Source: an uncultured Actinomycetota bacterium
Lineage (GTDB): Bacteria > Actinomycetota > Actinomycetes > Propionibacteriales > Nocardioidaceae
NCBI GenBank assembly: GCA_963728775.1
Contig: CAVSLP010000009.1
Coordinates: 1,429-65,428, forward strand
Direction of reading: 5' to 3'
Length of the DNA: 64,000 nt
Below the pieces are notes generated by a model that worked only from the letters and a program-made list of their open reading frames with translations, searched no databases and was not told the origin of the DNA. Every line of letters starts with the position of its first letter. Within the stretch, counting starts at the first letter, position 1. Shown piece by piece: positions 5,096-55,134 of this stretch. The position numbers and the translations under genes were made by a program.

Positions 5096-5134
5096 GCGCA
5101 GAGGTTATCCGGGTGGGGCGATAGCGTCGGGGGC

Positions 5135-5728
5135 GTGGACCCGATCGAGGCACAGAAGATCGCGCTGCGCGACCAGCTGGTCACCGCGCGGGGACGCCGA
5201 CCGCTGCTCGAGGTGAGCCGGGGCGCCCGGGCGATCGCCGAGCGGCTGCTGGAGACCCCGGAGGTACGACGGGCCGCGACCGTCGCGGCCTACGTCTCGA
5301 TCGGGACCGAGCCCGGGACCGGGCCGCTGCTGGACCTGCTCACCGCCGCCGGCAAGCGGGTGATCCTGCCGGTGCTCTTGCCCGACAACGACCTGGACTG
5401 GGCGCGCTACACCGGCCCGGTCGACCTGATGCCGGCGGGCCGCGGGCTGCTCGAGCCGCCCGGCCCGCACCTCGGGCCGGACGCGGTCGCCACCGCCGAC
5501 GTGGTGCTCGCCCCCGCGCTGGCCGTGGACGCCTCGGGCATGCGGCTCGGCCGCGGCGGCGGCTCCTACGACCGGGTGCTCGGCCGGGTCCCGGTCGGCA
5601 CCTTCGTGTGCACGCTGCTCTACGACGGGGAGCTGCTCACCGAGGTCCCCGCCGAGCGCCACGACCGCCGGGTCTCGGCGGTGGTGACCCCCGGCGGGGT
5701 CAGGAGGTTCTTTCCGGCACCAGGGTGA
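5135..5728 (+). CDS. 5-formyltetrahydrofolate cyclo-ligase
   Basis: In-frame GTG at 5135 inside the long ORF 3740..5728: VDPIEAQKIALRDQL...AAYVSIGTEPGT..LL...GKRVILPV...PALAVDASGMRLGRGGGSYDR. Confidence 0.85.
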   Translation: MDPIEAQKIALRDQLVTARGRRPLLEVSRGARAIAERLLETPEVRRAATVAAYVSIGTEPGTGPLLDLLTAAGKRVILPVLLPDNDLDWARYTGPVDLMPAGRGLLEPPGPHLGPDAVATADVVLAPALAVDASGMRLGRGGGSYDRVLGRVPVGTFVCTLLYDGELLTEVPAERHDRRVSAVVTPGGVRRFFPAPG

Positions 5729-9554: not shown

Positions 9555-9953
9555 ATGCTCAAGGGGTTCAAGGAATTCATCATGCGCGGCAACCTGGTCG
9601 AGCTGGCCGTCGCGCTGATCATGGCGCTCGCGTTCACGGCGGTCGTGACCGCCACGGTCACCGTGATCATGGACCTGCTCGGCAAGATCGGCGGCACGCC
9701 GGACTTCTCCTCCTACGCACCGGGCGGGGTGCACGTCGGCGCGTGGATCACCGCGATCATCTCGTTCCTGATCCTGGCCGCCGTCGTCTACTTCCTGATC
9801 GTGCTGCCCTACAACACCCTGCAGGCGCGGATGGCCCGCGGGGAGGAGCCGGTCTCCCCGGCGCCCGACATCGCGCTGCTCACCGAGATCCGCGACCTGC
9901 TCGCCGGCGAGCGGGGCAGCGGCACCGTCTCCGGGGGTGGCGGTCTGAGCTGA
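9555..9953 (+). CDS. mscL: large-conductance mechanosensitive channel MscL
   Basis: MLKGFKEFIMRGNLVELAVALIMALAFTAVV... is the canonical MscL N-terminus, with two TM helices. Confidence 0.93.
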   Translation: MLKGFKEFIMRGNLVELAVALIMALAFTAVVTATVTVIMDLLGKIGGTPDFSSYAPGGVHVGAWITAIISFLILAAVVYFLIVLPYNTLQARMARGEEPVSPAPDIALLTEIRDLLAGERGSGTVSGGGGLS

Positions 9954-11377: not shown

Positions 11378-12538
11378 TCAGCGCAGGCTCTGGTACAGCT
11401 CCACGGTGCGGGCCGCGATCGCGTCCCACCCGAAGTCGGCAACCGCCCGGGCACGGCCCGCCCGCCCCATCCTCGCGGCGAGCGCCGGGTCGGCCGCGAG
11501 GCGGTTCACCGCGGCGGCCAGGTCCGCCTCGAAGGACTCCGGGGCGGACTCCTCGTAGTCCACCAGCAGGCCGGTCTCGCCGTCGACCACGACCTCGGGG
11601 ATCCCGCCGACCCGGCTGGCCACGACCGCGGTCTCGCAGGCCATCGCCTCCAGGTTCACGATCCCCAGCGGCTCGTAGACCGACGGGCACAGGAAGGCCA
11701 GCGCGCCGGTCAGCACCTGCCGGACCTCCTCGCGCGGCAGCATCTCGGAGACCACGAAGACGCCGTCGCGGGCAGCCCGCAGGTCGGTGACCGCCGCGTC
11801 GGTCTCGGCCTTCAGCTCCGGGGTGTCGGCGGCCCCGGCGAGCAGCACCACCTGCAGGTCGGGGTCGAAGGACAGCCCGGCGCGGAGCAGGTGCGGCACG
11901 CCCTTCTGCCGGGTGATCCGGCCGACGAACGCCACGTAGGGCCGGGCCGGGTCCACCCCGATCCGCTCGAGCACCGCGCGGTCCGGGTCGGGGGCGTAGA
12001 AGTCGGTGTCGATGCCGTTGTAGACCACGTGCACCCGGTCCGGGTCCAGGTCCGGGTAGGCCGCCAGCACATCGGCGCGCATGCCGTTGCTGACCGCCAC
12101 CACGGCGTCCGCCGCCTCGTAGGCGGTGCGCTCGGCCCACGAGGACAGCCGGTAGCCGCCGCCGAGCTGCTCGGCCTTCCAGGGGCGTTGCGGCTCCAGC
12201 GAGTGCGCGGTGACGACGTGCGGGACGTCGTACAGCAGCTTGGACCAGTGCCCCGCCATGTTGGCGTACCAGGTGTGCGAGTGCACGACGTCGACGTGGC
12301 CGGAGCCGACCCCGGCGACCATCGCGAGATCCGTGGAGAGCACCTGCAGCGCCGGGTTCGCGCCGGCCAGCCGCGGCTCCTTCTCGGAGTGCGCGGTCGC
12401 GCCGTCCCGGGGCTCGCCCATGCAGTGCACGTCCACGTCGATCAGCCGGCGGAGCTCGCGGACCAGGAAGTCCACGTGCACCCCCGCCCCGCCGTACACG
12501 TCCGGGGGGAACTCGCGGGTCAGGATGGCAGCGCGCAT
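11378..12538 (-). CDS. glgA: GT4 glycogen synthase-like glycosyltransferase (actinobacterial GlgA/GlgM type)
   Basis: 386-aa ORF: MRAAILTREFPPDVYGGAGVHVDFLVRELRR...VTAHSLEP...C-terminal E..G.V.LEAMA motif. It is divergent from glgC. Confidence 0.85.
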   Translation of the reverse strand: MRAAILTREFPPDVYGGAGVHVDFLVRELRRLIDVDVHCMGEPRDGATAHSEKEPRLAGANPALQVLSTDLAMVAGVGSGHVDVVHSHTWYANMAGHWSKLLYDVPHVVTAHSLEPQRPWKAEQLGGGYRLSSWAERTAYEAADAVVAVSNGMRADVLAAYPDLDPDRVHVVYNGIDTDFYAPDPDRAVLERIGVDPARPYVAFVGRITRQKGVPHLLRAGLSFDPDLQVVLLAGAADTPELKAETDAAVTDLRAARDGVFVVSEMLPREEVRQVLTGALAFLCPSVYEPLGIVNLEAMACETAVVASRVGGIPEVVVDGETGLLVDYEESAPESFEADLAAAVNRLAADPALAARMGRAGRARAVADFGWDAIAARTVELYQSLR

Positions 12539-12585
12539 GGGACGAACCTATCGGCAACCGTCCCGGGTGGGACTAGGGTCGGCGC

Positions 12586-13800
12586 ATGGCGAAAGTACTG
12601 GCGATCGTCCTGGCCGGCGGCGAGGGCAAGCGACTGATGCCACTGACGGTCGACCGGGCCAAGCCCGCGGTCCCGTTCGGGGGCAGCTACCGACTGATCG
12701 ACTTCGCGCTGTCGAACCTCGTCAACGCGGGTTACCTGAAGTGCGCGGTGCTCACCCAGTACAAGTCGCACTCCCTGGACCGGCACATCTCGCTCACCTG
12801 GCGGATGTCCACGCTGCTGGGCAACTACGTCACCCCGGTGCCGGCGCAGCAGCGCCGCGGGCCGAAGTGGTACCAGGGCAGCGCGGACGCGATCTACCAG
12901 TCGATGAACCTGATCAACGACGAGCGGCCGGACACCATCGTGGTGTTCGGCGCCGACCACGTCTACCGGATGGACGCCTCGCAGATGGTGCAGGCGCACA
13001 TCGACTCCGGCGCCGGCGTCACGGTGGCCGGTATCCGGGTGCCGCGCAAGGAGGCCTGGCAGTTCGGGGTGATCAAGACCGCCGACGGGCTGCGGATCGA
13101 CGACTTCCTGGAGAAGCCGGCCGACCCGCCGGGGCTGCCGGACTCGCCCGACGAGGTGTACGCCTCGATGGGCAACTACGTGTTCACCGCGGACGCGCTC
13201 GTCGAGGCGCTCGAGCAGGACGCCGCGGACCCGAACTCGCGGCACGACATGGGCGGCGACATCATCCCCCGGCTGGTCGAGCAGCAGCAGGCCTGCGTCT
13301 ACGACTTCCGGCAGAACGTCGTGCCGGGCTCCACGCCCGGGGACCGCGACTACTGGCGCGACGTGGGCACCGTGGACTCCTACCACGAGGCGCACCTGGA
13401 CCTGGTCTCCGTGGAGCCGGTGTTCAACCTGTACAACACCGACTGGCCGATCTTCACCTCGCACCCGCAGCTGCCCGGCGCGAAGTTCGTCGAGAACGCG
13501 ACCGCCCGGGACTCGATCGTGTGCGCCGGCTCGATCGTGTCCGGCGCCACCGTGGACAGCTCCGTGATCGGCGCCCACGCCTACGTCGCGGACGGCGCCA
13601 ACGTGGAGCGCAGCGTGGTCTTCGACAACGTCACCATCGGCAAGGGCGCCGTGGTGCGCAACGCGATCCTGGACAAGAACGTGATCGTGCCCGACGGCGC
13701 CCAGATCGGCGTGGACCACGACGAGGACCGGCGCCGCGGGTTCACGGTCAGCGAGGGCGGGGTCACGGTGCTCGGGAAGTACCAGCTGGTCGTGCCCTGA
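12586..13800 (+). CDS. glgC: glucose-1-phosphate adenylyltransferase
   Basis: 404-aa ORF: [49 protein letters not shown]...QGSADAIYQ. This is canonical GlgC. Confidence 0.95.
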
Positions 13801-22690: not shown

Positions 22691-23017
22691 ATGGACCAGG
22701 TTGCCACCACGCTGCACGCCAAGCGCGCCGAGATCGCCGAGCAGCTCACCCAGCTCACCGCGAAGCCCGACGAGCAGGGGTCGATCTCATTCGGCAAGCG
22801 GGTGGGCGAGGGTACGTCGATGGCGGTGGACCGGCTCTCCCAGGTGGCCGTGCACGACAAGCTCCAGATGACGATGGCCGACGTGGACCGGGCCCTGGCC
22901 AAGCTCGAGGACGGCAGCTACGGGACCTGCGACGCGTGCGGGCGGCCGATCGGCGCGGAGCGGCTCGAGGTGCTCCCGTGGGCAGTGCGGTGCGTGCAGG
23001 ACGCCGGCCGCCGCTGA
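22691..23017 (+). CDS. TraR/DksA family C4-type zinc-finger protein
   Basis: ATG at 22691: MDQVATTLHAKRAEIAEQLTQL...LEDGSYGTCDACGRPIGAERLEVLPWAVRCVQ. This shows the coiled coil plus CxxC-N17-C pattern. Confidence 0.8.
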   Translation: MDQVATTLHAKRAEIAEQLTQLTAKPDEQGSISFGKRVGEGTSMAVDRLSQVAVHDKLQMTMADVDRALAKLEDGSYGTCDACGRPIGAERLEVLPWAVRCVQDAGRR

Positions 23018-23039: not shown

Positions 23040-24467
23040 CTACCGGTTGGACAGCATGGTCTCGAACAGGTCGGCGTACTGGATCAGATGCCGGTCGCCG
23101 AGGAACCGGTCCTGGACCCGGGCCCGCGCGGCGGCGCCGAGGCGTTCGGCGGTCTCCGCGTCGTGCAGCAGCCGCGCGACGGCCTGCGCGAACGCGTCGA
23201 GGTCGTGCGGGTCCCGGAGCAGCAGACCACTGACCTCGTCGTCGATCTGGTCCTGGATCCCGCCCACCGCGGAGGCGACCACCGGACGCGCCTTCCACAT
23301 TGGCTCGGTCACGGTCAGCCCGAACCCCTCCACCAGGCTCTTCTGCACCACCACCGCCGCGTAGCGCTGCAGGGCGTTGACCAGGATCGCGTTCTCGTCG
23401 GTGTCGTCCATCGGGAGCGCGGCGAGATGCACCCGGTCCCGGACCCGTTCGGGCAGCCGTCGCCACAGCGACACGCACTCGGTCAGCACGGCGGCTCCCT
23501 CGGGGTCGTCGGTCACCCCCCAGGCGTCCGGGCCCACCAGCAGCAGGTGCGCGTCCTCGGGCATCTCGGTGACGTGCTCGCCGAAGCCGAGCAGCACCCC
23601 GGCCATGTCCTTGAGCCGGTCCCATCGGCTCACCTGCAGCACCACCCGGACGTCCCGAGGCACCGGCCCGCTCTCGATCACCAGGCTGTCCCGCTCCCGG
23701 ACCCGTCCGGGCAGGCCGCTGCGCCGCACGAAGTCCACGCTCCCCCCGTCCGGGGAGATGTCCACCAGTCCGGAGGTGCGCAGGGTCGCGGCGACGTCGG
23801 GCGGGCTCAGCACGGTGTTCTTCGTGCTGAACGGGTCGAGGGACGGCGGGATCACCCACAGCTTGTCCCGCGGCACCCAGGCCGGGGCGTACTGCCGCCG
23901 GGAGAAGATGAACGCGTCCGCACCCTCGACGAAGCCACGCAGGAACTCCCAGCCGACCGCGTCCAGGTCGTTGGGCTCGTCCCGCCCGATGTGACAGCGC
24001 CACACCACCTGGGCGCCCGCCGCCTGCAGCCCCGCGACCATGCCGGCGGTCTGCGGGTCGTGCAGCAGCACGAAGTCCCCGGCGCGCACCCGGCCCACCA
24101 GCGACCCGAGGTTGGCCTCCAGGACTTTGCGGTAGTGGGTCGTCTCGTCCGGCCCGAGCTTGCCGCCGTCACCCTTGTCCCCGTGCAGGAAGTTGTGCAG
24201 CCGCTTGGTGATCGTGAAGAACTCCTGGTCGCCGTCGAGCACCAGCCACCGGGTGTCCACGCCGGCCCCGCGCCCGTAGGCGATGATGGCCTGCAGCATC
24301 TCGGCGACGCCGCCGCCGTGCGCGGTGGCGTTGATGTTCCACACGATGGTGCCGCGCAGCAGCTCGCGCGCCCGCGCCGCGTAGCCGCGCAGACGTGCGG
24401 CACGATCCGGCTCCAGGAACTGCTCCAGCCGCTCGAGCTCCATCGCGTCCACCGCGACATCTCGCAT
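23040..24467 (-). CDS. GT4 glycosyltransferase, TreT-type trehalose synthase-like
   Basis: ATG at 24467: MRDVAVDAMELERL...IVWNINATAHGGGVAEMLQAIIAYGRGAGVDTRWLVLDGDQEFFTITKRLHNFLHG...VVQKSLVEGFGLTVTEPMWK. This pattern matches archaeal and actinobacterial TreT as I recall it. Confidence 0.7.
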   Translation of the reverse strand: MRDVAVDAMELERLEQFLEPDRAARLRGYAARARELLRGTIVWNINATAHGGGVAEMLQAIIAYGRGAGVDTRWLVLDGDQEFFTITKRLHNFLHGDKGDGGKLGPDETTHYRKVLEANLGSLVGRVRAGDFVLLHDPQTAGMVAGLQAAGAQVVWRCHIGRDEPNDLDAVGWEFLRGFVEGADAFIFSRRQYAPAWVPRDKLWVIPPSLDPFSTKNTVLSPPDVAATLRTSGLVDISPDGGSVDFVRRSGLPGRVRERDSLVIESGPVPRDVRVVLQVSRWDRLKDMAGVLLGFGEHVTEMPEDAHLLLVGPDAWGVTDDPEGAAVLTECVSLWRRLPERVRDRVHLAALPMDDTDENAILVNALQRYAAVVVQKSLVEGFGLTVTEPMWKARPVVASAVGGIQDQIDDEVSGLLLRDPHDLDAFAQAVARLLHDAETAERLGAAARARVQDRFLGDRHLIQYADLFETMLSNR

Positions 24468-24727
24468 GCCTCCATGCTGCCATTGCCGGGCAGCGGATCC
24501 GCCCGGAATGCGGACAGTCGTTTCGGAGGCCGCACACTCCCGCGGGAAGTGGGTAATGAGCGGCGGGGGCGCGCCGCGCTCCCGGACCGCACCCGACGAG
24601 GAGGGCGTGTGAGCACCGAGGCTGCCCCGCGCACCATCCGCGAGAACCCGCACCCCGACCACCGGACGGCGGGGCCGGTCGCCGTGCGGGCGGCGGCGCC
24701 GCGGGAGCACGAGCGCGCCGTCCTCCC

Positions 24728-25414
24728 ATGACCGGACGGAGCCCCGACTTCGACGCGATCTACGGGGCCAACCCGGACCCGTGGCAGGTGGGCACGTCCT
24801 GGTACGAGCGACGCAAGCTCGCGGTGCTGCTCGCCTCGCTGCCGCGCGAGCGCTACCCGACCGGCTGGGAGCCGGGCTGCGGGCCCGGGTTCGTGACCGC
24901 GGCGCTCGCCGGGCGCGTGGACGACCTGGTCGCCACCGACGGCTCGCGGGTGGCGGTCCGGCTGGCCCGGCAGCGCTGCCGGAGGGCGGACATCCGGGTG
25001 TCCGAGCTCCCCGAGGTGCCGCTGGGCACCCCCGTCGAGCTCGTCGTCGTGGCCGAGTTCCTCTACTACGTGCCCGACCTGGACGAGGAACGCGAGATGT
25101 CCACCGGGGGCGCACCGGGACCAACGTGGCCCACGAGCTTGACGGCGCCCCGGGTCATCGCGTCGAGCGCCACCAAGCCCGGCGGAGCGGGACGCCCACA
25201 CCCCGTAGGTTCCGGCCCGTGCGCACCCCGGCGATGGACGCGTCGCGCTCGTTCTCGGGCCCGGTGCGCCGCCGCCGACCAGGTGAGCACCAGCGCGCGG
25301 CTGGCACGCACACTGGCCGACCTCACGATCTACGTCCGCCAGCACCACCTCGACGACGAGCTCGAGCGGCTCGGCGGCCACGCCCTGCACAGCCACCGGG
25401 TGGTCGGCGGGTGA
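24728..25414 (+). CDS. SAM-dependent methyltransferase (NodS-like); only the N-terminal ~120 aa look genuine
   Basis: MTGRSPDFDAIYGANPDPWQVGTSWYERRKLAVLLASLPRERY..WEPGCGPGFVTAALAGRVDDLVATDGS..VVVAEFLYYVPD has the class I MT motif I. After about 25085 the translation turns Pro/Gly/Arg/Ser-rich with no MT-fold features. Confidence 0.5.
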   Translation: MTGRSPDFDAIYGANPDPWQVGTSWYERRKLAVLLASLPRERYPTGWEPGCGPGFVTAALAGRVDDLVATDGSRVAVRLARQRCRRADIRVSELPEVPLGTPVELVVVAEFLYYVPDLDEEREMSTGGAPGPTWPTSLTAPRVIASSATKPGGAGRPHPVGSGPCAPRRWTRRARSRARCAAADQVSTSARLARTLADLTIYVRQHHLDDELERLGGHALHSHRVVGG

Positions 25415-25638
25415 CGAGCCGAACGGTGGCCGGCGTCGCCGCCCACCGCCTCGCGGACGCCTGCGCGACAGGGGCCGACAGGCCCGTCGACGTGTGACCG
25501 GTGCGACCTGTGGGGGCCGCACGCCCCGGCGCGCAAGGTTTCTATCTCGAATGCCAAGTCTAGAGGTTTGCTGCCCGGGGCCAGGGGTACGCATCCGCAT
25601 TCGGGGAGACCGTGCACACAGTCTCGGAGGGAAGTGCC

Positions 25639-26469
25639 ATGAGTGCTGCGGGAAAGATTGCCCTAGGAGTCGCCAGCGGCTATCTGCTGGGGCGCACCAA
25701 GAAGCTCAGGCTCGCCATCACGGTAGGGAGCATGCTGGCGGGCAAGCGGATTGCCACGGACCCACGTGGCCTGATGCAACAAGGTTCCAAGCTCATCGAG
25801 AGCAACCCGGAGCTGGCCAAGCTGTCCGACCAGATCCGCAGCCAGCTGTTCGAGTCTGCCCGGGCGGCCGCGATGGCCACCGCGAGCAGCCGGATGAACG
25901 GGCTCAGCGACGCGATCCGGGACCGCTCGGAGCGGCTGGCGCTGCCTCCGGGTGAGGACGAGGACGCCTACGCCGACGTGGATGAGGACGCCGACGAGTA
26001 CGACGAGTACGACGAGGGGGAGCTCGACCAGGAGGAGCCCGACGAGGAGGCGCCGGAGGACGAGGCCCCGGACGAGGAGCCCGAGGAGGAGCCCGAGGAG
26101 GCACCACGCCGGAGACGGCCGGCGGCCAAGCGATCGGGTCGCTCCCGCGGGACCGGGGGCCGGGGGTCCGCGGCGAAGGCCTCGAGCAGCGCGCGCAGAT
26201 CCAGCCCGTCCTCGCGGTCCACCACCAAGAAGTCGAGCGCCGCGAAGCGGTCCAGCACCGCGAAGAAGGCCCCGGCCAAGAAGACCGCGGCAGCCAGGTC
26301 GTCGAGCGGCAGCGCCCGCAAGACGAGCCCGTCCTCGCGGTCCACCACCAAGAAGTCGACCTCCGCGAAGCGGTCGTCGACCGGAGGCGGGTCCTCCTCC
26401 ACGAGGAAGTCCTCGTCCAGCGCCGGGAAGCGCGCCTCGTCGCGCGGCCGGTCGACCAAGAAGGCGTGA
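25639..26469 (+). CDS. gvp-cluster-associated tripartite protein (helical N-domain, acidic linker, basic Ser/Thr/Lys-rich repeat tail)
   Basis: ATG at 25639 with GGAGGG 8 nt upstream and about 97% GC3. Its stop overlaps the next gene's GTG (GTGA). The sequence contains EDEDAYADVDEDADEYDEYDE...PRRRRPAAKR, then two 41-aa repeats (SSPSSRSTTKKS.AAKRSST). Confidence 0.7.
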   Translation: MSAAGKIALGVASGYLLGRTKKLRLAITVGSMLAGKRIATDPRGLMQQGSKLIESNPELAKLSDQIRSQLFESARAAAMATASSRMNGLSDAIRDRSERLALPPGEDEDAYADVDEDADEYDEYDEGELDQEEPDEEAPEDEAPDEEPEEEPEEAPRRRRPAAKRSGRSRGTGGRGSAAKASSSARRSSPSSRSTTKKSSAAKRSSTAKKAPAKKTAAARSSSGSARKTSPSSRSTTKKSTSAKRSSTGGGSSSTRKSSSSAGKRASSRGRSTKKA

Positions 26470-27624
26470 TCGCGATGGCGGACAACACCGACAACAACGG
26501 CAGCAACGGCACCGGTGTGCTGCGGGGGCTGCTCGACGAGCTCCCCGTCGACCGGCTCAAGGACGAGCTCCAGCAGAGCTTCTCGACGCTGAGCGGGAAG
26601 GCGCTCGAGACCGCGGGCGGCAAGATCGGCGACCTGTCCGACCGGCTCACCGACGTCGCCGACGGCGGCGGCTTCATGGGCAAGGCGGCCAAGGAAGGCA
26701 TGGAGGAGGCCGCCGAGGGTGGCTCCCCGGTCAAGGGTGCGCTCAAGGGTGGTCTCGGGGGCGTGAAGGACAAGGTCAAGGAGAAGCTCGGCGGCGGCAA
26801 GAGCGGCGGCGAGCAGGGCACCCGGTCGACGAACATCATCGAGGAGATCGACGTCGGTGTTCCGGTGCGGCTGGCGTACAACCAGTGGACCCAGTTCCAG
26901 GACTACTCGAACTTCATGAAGAAGGTCGACACCGTCGACCAGGAGGACGAGGTCAAGGTCAACTTCAAGGCCCAGGTGTTCTGGTCACACCGCAAGTGGG
27001 AGGCCACCATCCTGGAGCAGGTCCCGGACGAGAAGATCGTCTGGCGCTCCAAGGGAGAGAAGGGCCACGTCGACGGCGCGGTCACCTTCCACGAGCTGGC
27101 GCCGAACCTGACCCGGATCCTGGTCGTCCTCGAGTACTACCCCCAGGGGTTCTTCGAGCGCACCGGCAACCTGTGGCGGGCGCAGGGCCGACGGGCACGG
27201 CTGGAGCTCAAGCACTTCCGTCGGCACGTGATGACCCAGGTGGCCCAGAACCCGGACGAGGTCGAGGGCTGGCGTGGCGAGATCCACGACGGCGAGCTCG
27301 AGCGCGACCACGACGAGGTCGTGGCCGACGAGCAGGAGCGCGAGGAGTCGCCAGGGCTCCGAGGACTCCTACGACGAGCCCGACGACATCGACGAGGACG
27401 CCGGGGACGAGGAGTACGACGACGAGGCCGAGTACGACGAGGCCGAGCCGGAGGACGACTACGAGGAGCCGGACGCCGTCGACGAGGACGGCTACGACGA
27501 GCCCGTCGAAGACGAAGAAGCGGCCGACGAGTACGAGGAGGAGCCCGAGGACGAGTACGACGAGGAACCGGTCGACGAAGAGCCCGCTCCGCGCCGTCGA
27601 CGCCGCGCCGCCGGCAAGCGCTGA
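26466..27624 (+). CDS. SRPBCC (START / cyclase-dehydrase fold) protein with acidic tail; apparent +1 frameshift near 27355
   Basis: N-terminal G/K-rich region, then the SRPBCC core (IEEIDVGVPVRLAYNQWTQFQDYSNFMKKV...WEATILEQVPDEKIVWRS...VTFHELAPNLTRILVVLEY). After ...EQEREESPG the listed frame becomes poly-Arg. The +1 frame gives SEDSYDEPDDIDEDAGDEEYDDE...[13 protein letters not shown] and stops at 27624. Confidence 0.7.
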
Positions 27625-27657
27625 CCACCCCACCCTGACTGGAAGGATCACCGGAAC

Positions 27658-28080
27658 ATGACTGTTGCGACCTCACAACGCCGGGGCGGGGGCTACCTCG
27701 AGCGTCCGGCGCCCAGCGGCCTGGCCGACGTCATCGACATCATCCTGGACAAGGGCATCGTCATCGACGCCTACGTCCGGGTGTCGCTCGTCGGCATCGA
27801 GCTGCTCACCATCGACGCACGCATCGTGATCGCGTCCGTCGACACGTACCTGCGCTTCGCCGAGGCGACCAACCGCCTCGACCTCTACGAGCACGGCGGC
27901 AAGGACATCACCGAGGCGGTCGGCGACCTGCAGCAGGGTGGGGCCGCGAAGAAGACCAGCGGCGCGATCAAGGGCGTCAAGCAGGCCCTCACCAGCGGCG
28001 ACGACGGGGAGGACGGCGGGGGCTCCCGCCGACCCGCCAAGAAGTCGCCCGCCCGCCGACGCAGGACGCAGGAAGAGTGA
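27658..28080 (+). CDS. gvpA: gas vesicle structural protein GvpA (long-tailed actinobacterial type)
   Basis: [49 protein letters not shown] is the canonical GvpA core. GGAAGGA lies upstream. Confidence 0.93.
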
Positions 28081-28862
28081 GCCGGACGCAGACCCGGCGG
28101 GCCGGGCCGGTGACGGGCGACGAGCCTGCGGCTGACCTGGCCTGCTACGTGTACGGCGTCGTCGCCGGCGCGCAGCAGATCCCGGGCGACCTCGCCGGGG
28201 TCGACGACGGTGCGGTCGAGCTCGTCGGGCACGGCGACATCGCCGCGGTGGTGAGCGAGATCGAGGTCGAGCGGCCCCCGGGCCGCCGCAAGGACCTGGT
28301 CGCGCACGGCACGGTCGTCGACACCCTCGCCACGGCCGGCCCGGTGGTACCGGTCCGGTTCGGGTCCGTGCTGCCCGACCGGGCGTCGGTGGTCGAGCAG
28401 CTCCTGGCGCCCGACCACGACCGGTTCACGGGGCTGCTGGGCGAGCTCCGCGGCCGGGCGCAGCTCAACCTGCGCGCGACGTACAACGAGGCCGCGGTGC
28501 TGGCCGAGGTGGTCGCCGAGCAGCCGGAGATCGCCGAGCTCCGGGCCCGCACGCGTGACCTGACCGAGGAGGCCGGGTACGCCGACCGGGTGCGGCTCGG
28601 CGAGCTGGTCGCCCGCGCGATGGAGGCGAAGCGGGACCACGACGCCGGGATCATCCTCGACGCCACGCTGCCCCACGCCGCGGCGCACAACCCGCGCGCC
28701 GGCTCCGGGGTGGACCACCTGCTCGACGTGGCGTTCCTCGTCGACGACGACCGGCGTCAGGCGTTCGAGGACGCCCTCGAGTCGATGGCCGCGGCGATGC
28801 ACGAGCGCGCGCGGCTGCGGCTGTTCGGCCCGTTGGCGCCGTACGACTTCGTGGAGGGATGA
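28077..28862 (+). CDS. gvpF: gas vesicle protein GvpF/L family (first copy)
   Basis: GTGA overlap with gvpA. CYVYGVV...[16 protein letters not shown]...VVPVRFGSV...C-terminal [13 protein letters not shown] is typical of GvpF/L. Confidence 0.88.
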
Positions 28863-28865
28863 GGG

Positions 28866-29117
28866 ATGGGGCTGATCAGCGGGCTGCTCACGCTGCCTCT
28901 CGCGCCGGTGCGCGGGACGGCGTGGGTGGCCGACCAAGTCCTGCAGCAGGCCGAGGAGGAGCTCTACGATCCCGCGAAGATCCGGCGGCAGCTCGACGAC
29001 GTGGACCGGAGGCGTGAGAACGGGGAACTTACCGACGAGGAGGCGACCGCGATCGAGGACGAGCTCGTGGACCGCCTGCTCATCAGCAGGAGCCGACCTG
29101 GGACCCGGGAGGGGTAG
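28866..29117 (+). CDS. gvpG: gas vesicle protein GvpG
   Basis: MGLISGLLTLPLAPVRGTAWVADQVLQQAEEELYDPAKIRRQL..L....GELTDEE....EDEL is the GvpG pattern. Confidence 0.88.
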   Translation: MGLISGLLTLPLAPVRGTAWVADQVLQQAEEELYDPAKIRRQLDDVDRRRENGELTDEEATAIEDELVDRLLISRSRPGTREG

Positions 29118-29121
29118 CACC

Positions 29122-29517
29122 ATGGCGACCAACAAGACCAGCACCTCCGGGCGCGCGACGAAGAAGTCGTCGTCCGCGAACGGCGACGGGCAGGCGACCC
29201 GGAGCCGCTCGTCCGCGAGCCGGCAGCGCGCGGGGGCCCCGCGCGCGGCGGCACCGCGGACGATGAACGGGGCGGCCGTCGCCGCCGAGGCGTCCCGGCA
29301 GCTGCTGCAGCTGACCGGCCGGGCGGCCGAGGGGGTGACCGGGCTGGAGCGGACCGACGACGGGTGGAAGGTGCAGGTCGAGGTGGTCGAGGTCCGCCGG
29401 ATCCCGGACACCACCGATGTGCTGGCCGTCTACGAGATCGATGTCGACTCCGACGGTGACCTCGAGGGCTACCGGCGGCTGCGCCGCTACACCCGCGGTG
29501 TCGCCCGGGAGGAGTAG
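29122..29517 (+). CDS. gvpO: gas vesicle protein GvpO
   Basis: ATG at 29122. S/T/K/R-rich N-terminus, then AAEASRQLLQLTGRAAEGVTGLERTDDGWKVQVEVVEVRRIPDTTDVLAVYEIDVDSDGDLEGYRRLRRY. Confidence 0.85.
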   Translation: MATNKTSTSGRATKKSSSANGDGQATRSRSSASRQRAGAPRAAAPRTMNGAAVAAEASRQLLQLTGRAAEGVTGLERTDDGWKVQVEVVEVRRIPDTTDVLAVYEIDVDSDGDLEGYRRLRRYTRGVAREE

Positions 29518-29520
29518 CCG

Positions 29521-29877
29521 ATGACGGAGAGCCAGAGCCCCGCGACGACCTCGCGCCCGTACTCCGCGCCGATGGGCGCCTCGTCGCGGCCGCAGCCGGC
29601 CAGCCTGGCCGACATCCTCGAGCGGGTGCTGGACAAGGGCATCATCATCGCCGGCGACATCCGGGTGAACCTGCTCGACATCGAGCTGCTCACCATCAAG
29701 ATCCGGTTGCTGCTGGTGTCCGTCGACAAGGCCCAGGAGATGGGCATCGACTGGTGGCGCAACGACCCGATGCTCACCACCAGCGAGCAGGGCCTGGCCG
29801 ACGAGAACCGCCGGCTCCGCGAACGCATCGAGGCGTTGGAGTCCGGCGACGGCGCGAAGGCGGGCGGGCGTGGCTGA
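29521..29877 (+). CDS. gvpJ: gas vesicle protein GvpJ (GvpA/J family)
   Basis: SLADILERVLDKGIIIAGDIRVNLLDIELLTIKIRLLLVSVDKAQEMGIDWW. Confidence 0.9.
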   Translation: MTESQSPATTSRPYSAPMGASSRPQPASLADILERVLDKGIIIAGDIRVNLLDIELLTIKIRLLLVSVDKAQEMGIDWWRNDPMLTTSEQGLADENRRLRERIEALESGDGAKAGGRG

Positions 29878-30643
29878 GACCGGCCGGTACCTCTACGCGA
29901 TCTCGCGTGGCCTCGAGCCGACCGCGCTCGACACCACCCCGGGTCTGCGTGATGCCCCGCTCGCGGTGGTGGAGCACCGCGGCCTGTGCGCGGTGGTCAG
30001 CGACGTCGACCTCGACGAGTTCGGCGAGCAGGCGCTGCGACGCAACCTCGAGGACCTCGGGTGGCTGGAGTCCGTCGCCCGCGGCCACGACGCGGTGGTG
30101 CACGCGGTGGCCGGGCTCGGACCCACCGCACCGCTGCGGCTGGCCACCATCTGCCTCGACGAGGACGGCGTCCGGGCCCGCCTCGACGAGTGGTACGACG
30201 GGCTCACGGCTGCCCTGGACCGGGTGCAGGGACGTCGCGAGTGGAGCGTGAAGGCGTTCGCGCCCGTCGGGGAGCCGACCCCGGCACGGCCGGCCGGTGG
30301 GTCGAGCCGCGCCCCGGGCGCCGGCGCCGCCTACCTGCAGCGCAAGAAGGCCGAGACGTCGGCCCGGCAGCACGCCGAGCAGCACGCGCTCGACGTCGCC
30401 GAACACCTGCACGCTCGGCTGTCGGCGCTCTCGGTGGCCAGCCGCCGACTGCGTCCGCAGGACCCGCGGCTCACCGGCCACGAGGGCACGATGACCCTGA
30501 ACGGTGCGTACCTCGTCGAGGTCGACGAGGAGGCCGGCTTCGCGGCTGCCGCCGACGCGCTCGCCGCCGGCCTTCCCGAGGCGCGAGTGCTGGTGCAGGG
30601 GCCCTGGCCGCCGTACTCCTTCGCCACCCTGGAGTGCCCGTGA
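29870..30643 (+). CDS. gvpL: gas vesicle protein GvpF/L family (second copy)
   Basis: GTG at 29870 overlaps the gvpJ end by 8 nt. RYLYAISRG...LAVVEHRGLCAVVSDVDLDEF...C-terminal VQGPWPPYSF. Confidence 0.88.
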   Translation: MAETGRYLYAISRGLEPTALDTTPGLRDAPLAVVEHRGLCAVVSDVDLDEFGEQALRRNLEDLGWLESVARGHDAVVHAVAGLGPTAPLRLATICLDEDGVRARLDEWYDGLTAALDRVQGRREWSVKAFAPVGEPTPARPAGGSSRAPGAGAAYLQRKKAETSARQHAEQHALDVAEHLHARLSALSVASRRLRPQDPRLTGHEGTMTLNGAYLVEVDEEAGFAAAADALAAGLPEARVLVQGPWPPYSFATLECP

Positions 30644-30846
30644 CCGAGATGGCGGTGGACCCCGACGACCGGCCCGCCGGGCAGATCGCCCTGGTCGACC
30701 TGCTCGACCGGCTGCTCGGCACCGGCGTCGTGCTGGCCGGGGACGTGGTGATCTCGCTGTCCGGGGTGGACCTGGTCCAGGTCCGGCTGCATGCCCTGAT
30801 CAGCTCGGTCCGGGCCGACATGGTGGGGCTGGTGGGCGAACGGTGA
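30640..30846 (+). CDS. gvpS: gas vesicle protein GvpS (small GvpA/J family member)
   Basis: GTGA overlap with gvpL. IALVDLLDRLLGTGVVLAGDVVISLSGVDLVQVRLHALISSV. An ATG at 30649 is an alternative start. Confidence 0.85.
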   Translation: MTEMAVDPDDRPAGQIALVDLLDRLLGTGVVLAGDVVISLSGVDLVQVRLHALISSVRADMVGLVGER

Positions 30847-31136
30847 CCGAGGAGCCACGGCTGTTCCCGCAGCGCCTGGAGACCGACCCCGAGTCGGTCG
30901 AGCGGGACCTGTTCAAGCTGGTGCTGACCGTCATCGAGCTGATCCGCCAGCTCATGGAGAAGCAGGCGCTGCGGCGCGTGGACGAGGGCGACCTCACCGA
31001 CGAGCAGATCGAGGGCCTCGGGGTCGGCCTGATGCACCTCGAGGAGGCGATGACCGAGCTCAAGGACCGCTACGGACTCACCACCGCCGACCTGAACATC
31101 GACCTCGGCCCGCTGGGCACCTTGCTCTCCGACTGA
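30843..31136 (+). CDS. gvpK: gas vesicle protein GvpK
   Basis: GTGA overlap with gvpS. DPESVERDLFKLVLTVIELIRQLMEKQALRRVDEGDLTDEQIEGLGVGLMHLEEAMTELKDRYGL. Confidence 0.9.
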   Translation: MTEEPRLFPQRLETDPESVERDLFKLVLTVIELIRQLMEKQALRRVDEGDLTDEQIEGLGVGLMHLEEAMTELKDRYGLTTADLNIDLGPLGTLLSD

Positions 31137-31236: not shown

Positions 31237-31626
31237 ATGCGGTTTGGAGGCGTCATGATCGTGATCGGGATGTTGCTGGTCGCCCTCCTCGCGGTCGGGG
31301 CGATCGTCGCCCTCGGGCTGCGCAGGTGGACACTCGACGAGGCTCGGACCGAGGGCCGGCTCCACCAGCCGGGCGCACACGCCCTGACCTACGCGGTGCC
31401 GGCGGGGCAGGACCCGGCCATCGTGGCCGCGGCGCTGTCGCACGAGCACTTCACCACGGTGACGGACTACGAGGGGGGCCACGAGCGACTGCTGGTGGCC
31501 GCCGACGAGCAGGACCGGGCGCGCGTGCGCGACATCATCGAGCACGTCGACCGGGCGGGCATCGACGGGCCCGAGATGCACGTCGCCCACGTGCGGTTCG
31601 AGGACGAGACGCCCGAGCCCGCGTAG
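31237..31626 (+). CDS. hypothetical membrane-anchored protein downstream of gvpK
   Basis: 129-aa ORF with one N-terminal TM helix (VMIVIGMLLVALLAVGAIVALGL) and a soluble domain. No recognisable motif. Confidence 0.5.
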   Translation: MRFGGVMIVIGMLLVALLAVGAIVALGLRRWTLDEARTEGRLHQPGAHALTYAVPAGQDPAIVAAALSHEHFTTVTDYEGGHERLLVAADEQDRARVRDIIEHVDRAGIDGPEMHVAHVRFEDETPEPA

Positions 31627-34153: not shown

Positions 34154-35008
34154 GTGCCCGTGCTGGCGAACTACCTGATCGGCCTGCGCGAGGGCCTCGA
34201 GGCCAGCCTGGTCGTGGTCATCCTGGTCGCCTACCTGGTCAGGTCCGGGCGCCGCACCCTGCTGCCCCGGGTCTGGGCCGGGGTCGCGATCGCCGTCGGG
34301 GCCTCGCTGGCCTTCGGCGCGCTGCTCACCTTCGGCCCGCAGGGGCTGAGCTTCCGGGCCCAGGAGGGCATCGGCGGCACCCTCTCGATCGTCGCGGTCG
34401 GGTTCGTCACCTGGATGGTGCTGTGGATGGCCCGCTCCGCCCGCGGGCTGTCCGGGGAGCTGCGTGGCCAGCTCGACCGGGCCGCCGAGGCCGGCTGGGC
34501 CAGCCTGGTGCTGGTGGCCGTGCTGGCCGTCGGCCGGGAGGGACTCGAGACCGCGTTGTTCCTGTGGGCCGCGACCCAGGCGGCCGCCGGCACCGCCGCG
34601 CCGCTGGCCGGTGCCGCGCTCGGCCTGCTCACCGCGGTCGGGCTCGGGTTCGGGATCTACCGGGGCGCGCTCCGGCTGAACCTGGCCCGGTTCTTCGCCT
34701 GGACCGGCGGGGTGCTGATCCTGGTCGCGGGCGGGGTGCTCGCCTACGGCGTGCACGACCTGCAGGAGGCCGGCCTGCTGCCGGGCCTGCACAGCCTCGC
34801 CTTCGACGTGAGCACCGTGGTCGACCCGGCCTCGTGGGTCGGGGCGCTGCTCAAGGGCACCGTCAACTTCTCCCCCGCCACCACCTGGCTGCAGGCCGGG
34901 GCGTGGCTGCTCTACGTGGTCCCGACGATGACGCTGTTCTACCGCCGGATCCACCTGAGCAGGCAGCCCACGGAGGCGGCGCGCGTGCCCGCCGGCGCGG
35001 CGCGCTGA
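34154..35008 (+). CDS. efeU: iron permease EfeU (FTR1 family)
   Basis: Two REGLE motifs (IGLREGLEASL, VGREGLETALF) and 7 TM segments. GTG at 34154 or 34160. Confidence 0.88.
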   Translation: MPVLANYLIGLREGLEASLVVVILVAYLVRSGRRTLLPRVWAGVAIAVGASLAFGALLTFGPQGLSFRAQEGIGGTLSIVAVGFVTWMVLWMARSARGLSGELRGQLDRAAEAGWASLVLVAVLAVGREGLETALFLWAATQAAAGTAAPLAGAALGLLTAVGLGFGIYRGALRLNLARFFAWTGGVLILVAGGVLAYGVHDLQEAGLLPGLHSLAFDVSTVVDPASWVGALLKGTVNFSPATTWLQAGAWLLYVVPTMTLFYRRIHLSRQPTEAARVPAGAAR

Positions 35009-35038
35009 CCCGTCCCGAACACCGAGAAGGAACCACCC

Positions 35039-36205
35039 GTGAACCGACGGACGCTGAGTCTTGCCCTGGTGCCCGTGCTGGGCCTGCCACTGGCCGCGTG
35101 CGCCTCGAACGCCGACCCGGACCCGGGCGACGCCGGCGTGGTCACCGTGTCGGCCACCGACGACGGCTGCGCGCTCTCGACCGACCGGGCCCCCGCGGGC
35201 AACCTGGTCTTCGAGGTCAGCAACGACGGCGGCAAGGTGACGGAGTTCTACCTCTACGCCGCCGACGGCGTCCGGATCGTCGGCGAGGTGGAGAACATCG
35301 GTCCGGGGCTGAGCCGCCGGCTGGTGCTCAAGGCCCGGCCCGGCCGCTACCTGACCGCCTGCAAGCCCGGGATGACCGGCGACGGGATCCGGGCCCGGTT
35401 CACCGTCATCGGCGCCGACGCCGACGCGCCGCTGACCGGTGCGCAGCGGCGGCTGGTGGACGCCGCGAACGCGGGCTACCGCCGCTACGTGCGGGAGCAG
35501 ACCGACGCGCTGCTGGCCGGCACCCGGCGGTTCGTCCGCGCCTACCGGCACGGCCGCGACGACCGGGCCCGGCACCTGTACCCCAGGGTGCGCGTGCACT
35601 GGGAGCGGATCGAGCCCGTCGCCGAGTCCTTCGGCGACCTCGACCCGCGGATGGACGCCCGCGAGGCGGACCTCGAGCCGGGGCAGCAGTGGACCGGCTG
35701 GCACCGGATCGAGAAGGACCTGTGGCCGCCGCGCGGCCGGGGCTACCGGCCGCTCGGCGCGGAGCGGCGCGCCGGCTACGCCAGCCGCCTGCTCGACGAC
35801 ACCGTCACGCTGCACGCGCGGGTGCGGAAGCTGAGCTTCACCGAGGACCAGGTCGCCAACGGCGCCAAGAGCCTGCTGGACGAGGTGGCCACCGGCAAGG
35901 TCACCGGCGAGGAGGAGATCTGGTCGCACACCGACCTGTTCGACTTCCAGGCCAACGTGCACGGCGCCCGGGTGGCGTTCGACGGGCTGCGCGCGGTGCT
36001 CGAACGGAGGGACCCGGCGCTGGCGCGGCTGATCGCGCGCCGGTTCGCTCAGCTGCAGCGGCTGCTGGACCGCTACCGGACCGGCCCGGACGGCTTCGTG
36101 GGCTACGACAGCCTGCGCACCGGCCAGGTCCGGGAGCTCTCCGACGCGGTCAACGCGTTGTCCGAGCCGCTGTCCCGGCTGACCGCCGCGGTGGTGGCGT
36201 CATGA
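35039..36205 (+). CDS. efeO: iron uptake system component EfeO (cupredoxin-like N-domain plus imelysin/M75 domain), lipoprotein
   Basis: Lipobox LPLAAC, N-terminal cupredoxin-like VTVSATDDGC...FEVSNDGGKVTEFYL, and a C-terminal imelysin-like region. Its position between efeU and efeB fits. Confidence 0.85.
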   Translation: MNRRTLSLALVPVLGLPLAACASNADPDPGDAGVVTVSATDDGCALSTDRAPAGNLVFEVSNDGGKVTEFYLYAADGVRIVGEVENIGPGLSRRLVLKARPGRYLTACKPGMTGDGIRARFTVIGADADAPLTGAQRRLVDAANAGYRRYVREQTDALLAGTRRFVRAYRHGRDDRARHLYPRVRVHWERIEPVAESFGDLDPRMDAREADLEPGQQWTGWHRIEKDLWPPRGRGYRPLGAERRAGYASRLLDDTVTLHARVRKLSFTEDQVANGAKSLLDEVATGKVTGEEEIWSHTDLFDFQANVHGARVAFDGLRAVLERRDPALARLIARRFAQLQRLLDRYRTGPDGFVGYDSLRTGQVRELSDAVNALSEPLSRLTAAVVAS

Positions 36206-37473
36206 GGGGGGCGCCCGGGGCGGGCGGGCTGAGCCGGCGCGGCCTGCTCGGCGTCGCCGGCGCCGGGGCGACCGCGGGGGTGGCGGGCTTCGCCGGTGGC
36301 CGGCAGACCGCCGGTGACGCGGAGCCGGGGCCCGCGTCGGGCCGCTACCCGTTCCACGGGCCGCACCAGGCCGGCATCGTCACCCCGGCACAGGACCGAC
36401 TGCACTTCGCCGCCTTCGACGTCACCGCCGCCGGCCGCGGCGAGCTGGTCCGGCTGCTGCGGGCGTGGACCGCGGCGGCCGCGGCGATGACCCGCGGCCG
36501 TCCGGTGGGCGGCGGCACCGCGCTGCCGTACGACGCGCCACCCGCCGACACCGGCGAGGCGACCGGGCTGCCGGCCGCCGGGCTCACGCTGACCTTCGGC
36601 TTCGGGCCCTCGCTGTTCCGCGACGCGCACGGCAGCGACCGGTTCGGCATCGCGGACCGCCGGCCCGCGGCGCTGCGCCGGCTCCCGCACTTCCCCGGCG
36701 ACATGCTGGAGGAGGCCCGCAGCGACGGGGACCTGTGCGTGCAGGCGTGCGCCGACGACCCCCAGGTGGCGGTGCACGCGATCCGCAACCTGTCCCGGAT
36801 CGGCTTCGGCACCGCGGCCCTGCGCTGGGCGCAGCTCGGCTTCGGGCGTACGTCGTCCACGTCGACGTCGCAGGCCACGCCGCGCAACCTGCTCGGGTTC
36901 AAGGACGGCACCGCCAACCTGAAGGCCGAGCAGGCCGACCTGGTCGACGAGCACGTCTGGGTCGCGCCGGGCGACGACCCGGGCGCGGAGTGGCTGGCCG
37001 GCGGGTCCTACCTGGTCGCGCGCCGGATCAACATGACCATCGAGACCTGGGACCGGGCGTCGCTGCGCGAGCAGGAGGGTCTGGTCGGCCGGGACCGGGC
37101 ACACGGGGCACCGCTCTCGGGCGGCGGGGAGTTCACCGCTCCCGACTTCACCCGCAGGGGCGCCGACGGGACGCCGCTGATCCCGATGGACGCGCACGTC
37201 CGGCTGGCGCACCCGAGCCGCAACCACGGCGCGCGGCTGCTGCGCCGGGGCTACAACTTCACCGACGGGAACGACCCGCTCGGCCGGCTGGACGCCGGGC
37301 TGTTCTTCCTCGCCTACGTCCGGGACCCGGACACCCAGTACCTCCCGATGCAGACCCGGCTGGCCCGCGACGACGGTCTCGCCGAGTACCTCCGGCACAC
37401 CGGGTCGGGGCTGTTCGCGGTGCCGCCCGGCGTGCGCCCGGGCGGCTTCGTCGGCGAGCCCCTGTTCGCTTGA
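36202..37473 (+). CDS. efeB: Dyp-type peroxidase / deferrochelatase EfeB with Tat signal
   Basis: ATGA overlap with efeO. SRRGLLGVAGAGA is a Tat leader. FHGPHQAGIVTP, FKDGTANL and LLRRGYNF are Dyp motifs. Confidence 0.9.
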   Translation: MRGAPGAGGLSRRGLLGVAGAGATAGVAGFAGGRQTAGDAEPGPASGRYPFHGPHQAGIVTPAQDRLHFAAFDVTAAGRGELVRLLRAWTAAAAAMTRGRPVGGGTALPYDAPPADTGEATGLPAAGLTLTFGFGPSLFRDAHGSDRFGIADRRPAALRRLPHFPGDMLEEARSDGDLCVQACADDPQVAVHAIRNLSRIGFGTAALRWAQLGFGRTSSTSTSQATPRNLLGFKDGTANLKAEQADLVDEHVWVAPGDDPGAEWLAGGSYLVARRINMTIETWDRASLREQEGLVGRDRAHGAPLSGGGEFTAPDFTRRGADGTPLIPMDAHVRLAHPSRNHGARLLRRGYNFTDGNDPLGRLDAGLFFLAYVRDPDTQYLPMQTRLARDDGLAEYLRHTGSGLFAVPPGVRPGGFVGEPLFA

Positions 37474-50713: not shown

Positions 50714-51355
50714 ATGGACCAGAGCCCGATCCGAGTGTTCCTCCTCGACGACCACGAGGTGGTGCGGCGAGGGCTGCGCGACCTGCTCGAGGGCGAGGGC
50801 GACATCGAGGTCGTCGGGGAGGCCGGCACGGCCTCCGAGGCGACCGCCCGGATCCCGGCGCTGCGGCCGCACGTGGCCGTCCTGGACGCCCGGCTGCCCG
50901 ACGGCAGCGGCATCGACGTGTGCCGCGACGTCCGCTCGGTGGACCCGACGATCAAGGCGCTGATCCTGACCAGCTACGACGACGACGAGGCGCTGTTCGC
51001 GGCGATCCTGGCCGGCGCCGCCGGCTACGTGCTCAAGCAGATCGGCAGCAACGACCTGATCGAGGGTGTCCGCCGGGTCGCCGCCGGGCAGTCGCTGATC
51101 GACCCGGCGCTCACCGCGCGGGTGCTCGACCGGGTCCGCAACGGGCCGGAGGAGCACGAGGAGCTGTCCGGGCTCACCGACCAGGAACGCAAGATCCTGG
51201 CGCTGATCGCCGAGGGCCTGACCAACCGGCAGATCGGCGAGCGGATGTTCCTCGCCGAGAAGACGGTCAAGAACTACGTCTCGAGCATCCTCGCGAAGCT
51301 CGGCCTGGAGCGGCGCACCCAGGCCGCGGTGCTCGCCTCCAAGCTGCTGCGCTGA
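50714..51355 (+). CDS. LuxR/NarL-family two-component response regulator, DosR/DevR-like
   Basis: [20 protein letters not shown]...[18 protein letters not shown] is the receiver domain. [44 protein letters not shown] is the LuxR HTH. Confidence 0.88.
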
Positions 51356-51369
51356 GGGACCAACGTCCC
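51356..51369. promoter_or_regulatory. DosR-box-like palindrome GGGAC-CAAC-GTCCC
   Basis: Perfect 5-bp arms with a 4-nt spacer, immediately after the regulator stop and 88 nt upstream of the DoxX-USP operon start. The core matches the mycobacterial DosR motif GGGAC-TWWA-GTCCC as I recall it. Confidence 0.5.
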
Positions 51370-55120: not shown

Positions 55121-55134
55121 GGGTCTTTGGTCCC
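55121..55134. promoter_or_regulatory. DosR-box-like site GGGTC-TTTG-GTCCC in the divergent PPOX/USP promoter region
   Basis: Its reverse complement GGGACCAAAGACCC matches the box at 51356 (GGGACCAACGTCCC) at 12/14. A looser site, GGGAC-ATACG-GTCCC, is at 55218-55232. Confidence 0.45.

Follow-up and report, generated by a model that had tools for sequence, protein, structure and literature searches.

We analysed a 64,000-nt stretch (the window; ~73% G+C) of contig CAVSLP010000009.1 from an uncultured actinomycete of the Nocardioidaceae, which encodes a cluster of gas-vesicle (gvp) genes. Ten co-directional, tightly packed genes were identified on the + strand at 25639-31136. They were called from a list of open reading frames, a frame plot of G+C at third codon positions (GC3) and inspection of start codons, and the GC3 plot backs their + strand frames. 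Genes across the whole window were called via codon-position G+C and then scanned against Pfam. The ten genes of the cluster are:

25639-26469, + strand: gene X (gvpY-like), 276 amino acids (aa), above the cut-off in no Pfam family
26475 (ATG; or GTG 26466) to 27638 as the open frame, with a frame-corrected end at 27624, + strand: gvpZ-like SRPBCC gene (Polyketide_cyc 5.1e-14)
27658-28080, + strand: gvpA, 140 aa, apparently of the long actinomycete type, with a C-terminal extension (PF00741 1e-13)
28077-28862, + strand: gvpF (PF06386, GvpL_GvpF, 3.7e-62)
28866-29117, + strand: gvpG (PF05120 2.1e-27)
29122-29517, + strand: gvpO (PF05800 1.4e-31)
29521-29877, + strand: gvpJ (PF00741, Gas_vesicle, 1.8e-14)
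29870-30643, + strand: gvpL (PF06386 2.8e-54)
30640-30846, + strand: gvpS, a small GvpA/J/M-family protein (PF00741 2e-13; NCBIfam GvpM/J/A-type matches)
30843-31136, + strand: gvpK (PF05121 3e-35)

All eight Gvp genes score far over the curated Pfam gathering cut-offs. Encoded are three GvpA-family paralogues (A, J and S), two GvpF/L paralogues, and GvpG, GvpK and GvpO. GvpA is 79-91% identical to other actinomycete GvpA. A sequence-only reading of this DNA had described a compact ten-gene gas-vesicle cluster here; its genes are all as placed, its eight Gvp assignments are upheld by the profile searches, and the GvpA peptide that it quoted is found in the translation. It had also described junctions formed by GTGA or 8-nt overlaps, or by gaps of at most 4 nt. 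GTGA overlaps do occur at A/F, L/S and S/K, the J/L junction is an 8-nt overlap, and the F/G, G/O and O/J gaps are 3-4 nt, but the spacing from the SRPBCC gene to gvpA is 19-33 nt. Use of the alternative start GTG 26466 would give the SRPBCC gene a GTGA overlap with X. No terminator-like site was found on the + strand within the cluster, and an Rfam search and a sigma-70 promoter scan returned no matches. The whole operon would be read as a single transcript.

It is very likely that this locus is an ordinary actinomycete-type gas-vesicle operon with the order gvpY-Z-A-F-G-O-J-L-S-K. The cluster is real, correctly delimited and a routine member of the actinomycete gvp class, and most of its features are already in the literature. 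From what is established for the Gvp families, GvpA would polymerise into the ribbed shell, the GvpA-like GvpJ and GvpS would be minor structural or seeding components, and GvpF, L, G, K and O would form an accessory complex needed early in assembly.

Related loci were sampled by an alignment scan of the SRPBCC protein with one genome per species; at least 592 places matched, of which 80 were kept. The ten proteins of the window were placed on these loci by tblastn, and 63 species loci had a full-length relative. The exact order X-SRPBCC-A-F-G-O-J-L-S-K was mapped in 42 of the 63, from more than 15 genera including Nocardioides, Rhodococcus, Prescottella, Nocardia, Mycobacterium, Micromonospora, Nonomuraea, Streptosporangium, Amycolatopsis, Saccharomonospora, Prauserella, Lentzea, Kitasatospora, Thermoactinospora and Sinosporangium. 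Among the other 21, most end prematurely at contig ends. Nocardioides iriomotensis has a ten-gene order identical to that of the window. Close relatives of the SRPBCC protein number in the thousands, and the nearest with a name come from Nocardioides and Nocardioidaceae. Given these counts, and an order gvpAFGOJLMK already published for Nocardia (PMC7600791), the position of gvpO between gvpG and gvpJ is not unusual, contrary to what had been proposed.

Other orders were identified in the same survey. Solirubrobacterales loci have SRPBCC-A-F-G-O-J-L-S-L-K. For Streptomyces coelicolor the published order is gvpO-A-F-G-Y-Z-J-L-S-K, in which Y and Z carry the annotation "hypothetical protein" (PMC5839063; PMC9501494), and the tblastn maps of S. 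rimosus and a second Streptomyces (L066) give O-A-F-G-X-SRPBCC-J-L-S-K. One Streptomyces plasmid cluster without Y-Z has O-A-F-G-J-L-S-K. As mapped, the window and Streptomyces differ solely in that the O and Y-Z modules have changed places. The G-O-J arrangement is widespread and looks ancestral, because it is shared by many actinomycete loci, the Solirubrobacterales and an Octadecabacter plasmid. Judged from these gene maps, the layout with Y-Z first and O between G and J is the common actinomycete form, and the O-first order of Streptomyces is the exception and apparently derived. Two metagenome-assembled genomes show further arrangements. In one, from an uncultured member of the Actinomycetota (L033), O-A-F-G-J-L-S-K without Y-Z lies ~5 kb upstream of a separate X-SRPBCC-F group. 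In the other, from the Mycobacteriales (L062), the cluster is rearranged as O-J-L-J-K-A-F-G-X-SRPBCC.

We did not identify an AAA+, AAA_5 or GvpN-like protein or a Gas_vesicle_C protein in the 64-kb window, either by Pfam scan of the called genes or by a Walker-A scan. Among Walker-A proteins, nucleotide-binding domains are confined to two ATP-binding cassette transporters (59054-62826). The AAA+ GvpN next to gvpA, a hallmark of cyanobacterial, haloarchaeal and Bacillus-type clusters, is not present at the locus. When a genuine GvpN encoded on the Octadecabacter arcticus plasmid was used as a tblastn query, none was found either in the window plus 84 related loci (1.6 Mb; best match E = 0.02). 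Thus, the earlier observation that gvpN and gvpC are missing in and next to the cluster stands. The suggestion that this is unusual does not, as actinomycete gvp clusters are normally without both genes (PMC9501494) and none of the 84 related loci has GvpN.

With high confidence, X is predicted to be GvpY-like and the SRPBCC protein GvpZ-like, because their homologues fill the slot between gvpG and gvpJ in Streptomyces. The names gvpY and gvpZ are also used in Serratia, with no relation to the genes meant here. The two leader genes had been considered non-canonical; they are accessory and actinomycete-specific, but the presence of homologues at the Streptomyces gvpY/gvpZ slot argues against the rest of that description.

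In X, a helical N-terminal domain (residues 1-100) leads into an acidic tract (net -32), which is followed by a PRRRR motif and a basic tail rich in Ser, Thr, Lys and Arg (net +37). The N-terminal 100 residues are conserved, with invariant G14, Y15, L17, G18 and R19, and four helices are predicted there with low confidence (AlphaFold predicted local distance difference test score, pLDDT, 59). Over its N-terminal 91 residues, X shares 43% identity with the S. rimosus gene in the Y position (E 6e-23). Clustering of the Y family at 50% leaves 1278 representatives, and Pfam has no model for it. In 7 of 34 Y homologues the basic tail matches the histone-H1-like HC2 profile, a match that is probably compositional. 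The AlphaFold models of Y and Z have a mean pLDDT of 58-59, too low for fold searching.

In three loci from Nonomuraea and Actinomadura (L035, L036 and L041) we identified a Y-Z pair (in L036, Z alone) whose downstream 10 kb is free of gvp genes; the pair can exist apart from gvp genes, or these genomes keep their gvp genes elsewhere. The Y tail in L035 is built of GDAKP(R/G) repeats. Two apparent metagenomic Y-Z fusion proteins (P0310 and P0373) were considered as Rosetta-stone evidence and rejected, as their middle sections look wrong-frame. They are probably gene-calling artefacts across acidic tracts that are GA-rich and stop-poor, a problem like that of gvpZ in the window.

The SRPBCC domain of Z covers approximately residues 119-262 (PF03364, 53 bits against a gathering cut-off of 23.4), with a helix-grip-like strand and helix core (AlphaFold pLDDT 70-85). 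Compared with typical SRPBCC proteins, Z adds a Gly/Lys-rich, helical N-terminal region, modelled at low confidence, and an acidic tail of ~100-110 residues; in the frame-corrected protein this long tail ends in RRRRRAAGKR. The Streptomyces gene in the Z position is likewise built of N-terminal helices, an SRPBCC domain (PF03364 5e-18) and an acidic tail. Among solved structures there was only a marginal match, to the uncharacterised DR_A0006 of Deinococcus (3ggn/2kcz; E 1e-3). A GvpZ homologue of 537 aa is encoded at 4305-5918 of locus L003, on a plasmid of Rhodococcus koreensis. Behind its acidic tail, PPARRGRPRKTAAKSASEDK, an AT-hook-like RGRP motif, is repeated four times in tandem, and the cluster on this plasmid has two GvpA-like genes and ends after gvpG.

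The gvpZ-like gene of the window contains a feature that the sequence-only reading missed:

27345-27361, + strand: site of a +1 frameshift, from alignment of homologues in two frames

Alignments of four homologues follow frame 1 as far as 27344-27353 and frame 2 between 27352-27361 and 27612, and GC3 changes frame near 27250-27300. In all ten homologues fetched, the SRPBCC domain is followed by an Asp/Glu tail of ~100 residues ending ..PRRRR... In the window this acidic tail is encoded one frame over and ends at 27624. Deletion of one G from GGG at 27354-27356 restores a normal 382-aa protein, and the shift is probably caused by one extra G in this run. As sequenced, the frame stays open to 27638 and encodes an Arg-rich, 94-residue tail of charge +45, with 45 Arg/Lys, as compared with a net charge of -58 for the normal tail. 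A second frameshift, in the methyltransferase gene at 24728-25414, was considered and rejected, as the pattern of G+C by codon position fits one + frame throughout.

The frameshift is either a sequencing or assembly error or a real lesion. The cluster could be decaying in this strain if the +1 shift is a mutation that disables a core accessory protein, which we consider possible but doubtful. The frame change stands in the deposited sequence, and the public annotation carries the aberrant product with the Arg-rich tail (P0001, 387 aa); the homologues align across two frames, and the acidic tail is present in all of those examined. This is, however, a single lesion at a short G run, the nine other genes are intact with high GC3, and the shifted frame remains open purely through its composition. 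An assembly error is equally likely. No independent assembly across the site was found; a 1.8-kb Logan contig with an exact GvpF stops short of gvpZ.

Upstream of the operon we identified one candidate regulatory element:

25566-25590, + strand: sigmaB/sigmaF-type promoter-like motif GTTTGC-N13-GGGTAC (consensus match), 49 nt upstream of the start codon of X

The consensus was taken from PMC8346170, in the form GTTT(N)-N12-14-GGG(T/A)A(C/T). SigB-homologue promoters of S. coelicolor include SCO3557p, GTTTGC-N14-GGGTAC (PMC8346170). The strict form matches twice in the 64 kb. The second match (GTTTCC-N13-GGGTAC, 33184-33160, - strand) lies ~45 nt upstream of the likely start of a flanking major facilitator superfamily transporter gene. 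A relaxed form (G.TT-N14-18-GGGTA, within 250 nt upstream of X) recurs in several genera and is present in 20 of the 58 related loci, as compared with 0.8% of background 250-nt windows (~44-fold). From the motif we infer that the operon may be driven by a sigmaB/sigmaF-type general-stress promoter at 25566-25590. It would then be induced by osmotic or other stress, like the gvp operon of S. coelicolor, for which control by SigB and induction under salt stress and cell-envelope stress are reported (PMC5733086; PMC3123327).

Regulation of the operon by DosR was considered and rejected, as there is no DosR-box core (GGGAC-N4-GTCCC) at 25415-25638. DosR-box-like palindromes do occur beside DosRS-like genes elsewhere in the window: GGGACCAACGTCCC (perfect core) at 51356-51369 and GGGTCTTTGGTCCC at 55121-55134. 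Their count over the window is below chance expectation. The two palindromes are consistent with a DosRS-type regulon at that place.

The neighbours recognised in the sequence-only reading (TreT, DksA/TraR and a DosR-like module) were confirmed by Pfam. The neighbourhood includes the following, and a DJ-1 protein:

9555-9953: MscL (Pfam)
11378-13800: divergent pair of a GlgA-like glycosyltransferase (GT4) and GlgC (Pfam)
22691-23017: DksA/TraR zinc-finger protein (Pfam)
23040-24710, - strand: TreT (Pfam)
50714-51355: response regulator of a DosRS-like set (Pfam)
52971-54557, - strand: GAF-GAF histidine kinase of the DosRS-like set, found with universal stress proteins (USPs) and a pyridoxamine-oxidase-like protein (Pfam)
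55721-57277: alpha-amylase-family enzyme

Genes for glucan and trehalose metabolism (GlgA-like/GlgC, TreT and the alpha-amylase-family enzyme) are thus scattered over the window. A few kb downstream of the cluster (34154-37473) is an iron-uptake operon for EfeU (FTR1), an EfeO-like (imelysin) protein and a Dyp-peroxidase (EfeB). On the same strand as the cluster, 100 nt 3' of gvpK, is a gene for a 129-aa protein with an N-terminal membrane helix (31237-31626); it was rejected as a cluster member, as none of the related loci has a homologue and it falls in no Pfam family. The neighbourhood seen in the window is not kept with the gvp cluster in other genomes. Synteny of nar and gvp genes as a general rule was also rejected, as only 4 related loci have narG next to the cluster and the window does not.

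Several points weigh against an ordinary, working operon of this class. GvpA falls just short of the model for its long (PRK09368) subfamily (NF006872, E 7.7e-44, residues 11-138 of 140; 149.2 bits against a cut-off of 151). The Y and Z assignments rest on position and on homology to other Streptomyces, not on SCO6503/SCO6504 themselves. The stress promoter is a consensus match, and even in its relaxed form the motif is missing from the 250 nt upstream in 38 of the 58 related loci. Transcription of the operon and formation of vesicles are predictions from the sequence. A genuine frameshift in gvpZ could leave the operon of this strain defective. Finally, deletion of the gvp clusters in S. coelicolor gave no buoyancy phenotype, according to passages of PMC5839063 that summarise that work.

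The last point has a bearing on the proposal that Gvp-like proteins of soil actinomycetes build no buoyancy organelles and that the operon is instead a stress module, for example one that protects against osmotic stress or desiccation or stores nitrogen. The stress-sigma promoter motif, the published induction by salt and cell-envelope stress (PMC3123327) and the neighbouring trehalose/glycogen, MscL and USP/DosRS-like genes are in line with this proposal, as are the lack of a buoyancy phenotype in S. coelicolor and a published suggestion of a role in nitrogen storage (PMC5839063; PMC3123327). So are the extreme charge tracts of Y and Z, and the Y-Z pairs that have no adjacent gvp genes. We nevertheless regard a stress module as unlikely. 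Purifying selection maintains the shell and assembly genes as a complete set, with GvpA conserved between genera at the level given above, which is hard to explain without a shell, and gas vesicles have been reported in one strain, Streptomyces sp. CB03234-S (as cited in a passage of PMC7376271). It is no more probable that, within such a module, the highly charged, disordered Y and Z act like hydrophilins.

The operon is therefore still best read as one for gas vesicles, and the role of Z within it can be considered from its conservation. Between the window and Rhodococcus jostii, identity is 70% for the SRPBCC domain, 79% for GvpA, 68% for GvpK and 39-45% for GvpF, G and L. Because it is conserved about as well as GvpA and GvpK, we infer that the SRPBCC protein is probably a core accessory factor. 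A stronger form of this idea is that GvpY and GvpZ are essential core assembly factors that could replace the roles of GvpC or GvpN. This fits the identity of the SRPBCC domain between Nocardioides and Rhodococcus, set against the lower values for GvpF, G and L, but we consider it rather improbable. If it held, GvpA might have its hydrophobic face shielded in the SRPBCC pocket until it is inserted, and the acidic tails might dock on the Arg-rich C-terminal extension of GvpA and on the basic tails of Y and O. No experiments on Y or Z, and no report linking SRPBCC proteins to gvp clusters, were found in the literature searched.

That the gene order, the lack of GvpN and GvpC and novel leader genes set this cluster apart as atypical has almost no chance of being correct: the order does differ from that of S. 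coelicolor and X has no Pfam family, but the survey refutes the idea, as most of the mapped species loci and the published Nocardia clusters share the order, the leader homologues occupy the Streptomyces Y/Z slot and no related locus has gvpN.

The actinomycete gvp cluster class has reportedly been known since 2005. The single locus adds one example of the Nocardioides type and has little weight as a finding. What the survey adds is its framing: the Y-Z-first layout with O between G and J appears to be common, and the textbook Streptomyces order derived. GvpZ is among the best-conserved products of the operon and is functionally uncharacterised, and the sigmaB/sigmaF-type motif recurs upstream of such operons in several genera. 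Y and Z are relevant to reconstituting actinomycete vesicles or to explaining assembly without GvpN and GvpC, for which the gvpZ frame in this strain also matters. Questions about the roles of GvpY and GvpZ, and about the purpose of the operon in soil actinomycetes, are field-wide rather than specific to this locus.

In comparison with known systems, the window shares with clusters I and II of S. coelicolor (reportedly SCO6499-6508 and SCO0649-0657, from the work of van Keulen and colleagues in 2005) the same ten gene families, including the actinomycete-specific pair, the absence of gvpN and gvpC, and a GvpA that looks to be of the long type. A promoter of stress-sigma (SigB) type is likewise common to them, published for S. 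coelicolor and a motif match in the window. The two differ in arrangement: in S. coelicolor, O leads and Y-Z lie between G and J, whereas in the window Y-Z lead and O lies between G and J.

The Nocardia clusters (PMC7600791) have A-F-G-O-J-L-S(M)-K identical to the window. In N. abscessus, X and the SRPBCC gene precede gvpA, as in the window, and are presumably among the three unnamed open reading frames that PMC7600791 puts between nar and gvp. The Nocardia clusters adjoin narGHIJ, whereas the window cluster adjoins TreT and the methyltransferase.

More distant is the cluster of the alphaproteobacterial plasmid pOA238_160 of Octadecabacter arcticus, N-Hsp20-F-G-O-J-L-L-S-L-K, which has the F-G-O-J-L..K block in common with the window and is flanked by insertion sequence (IS) elements. 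Clusters of the GvpN type (Octadecabacter and, from the literature, Bacillus megaterium, cyanobacteria and haloarchaea) carry gvpN, frequently also Hsp20 and, in certain lineages, gvpC, and are without Y and the SRPBCC Z genes; the core of A, F/L, G, J/S(M), K and O is shared with the window.

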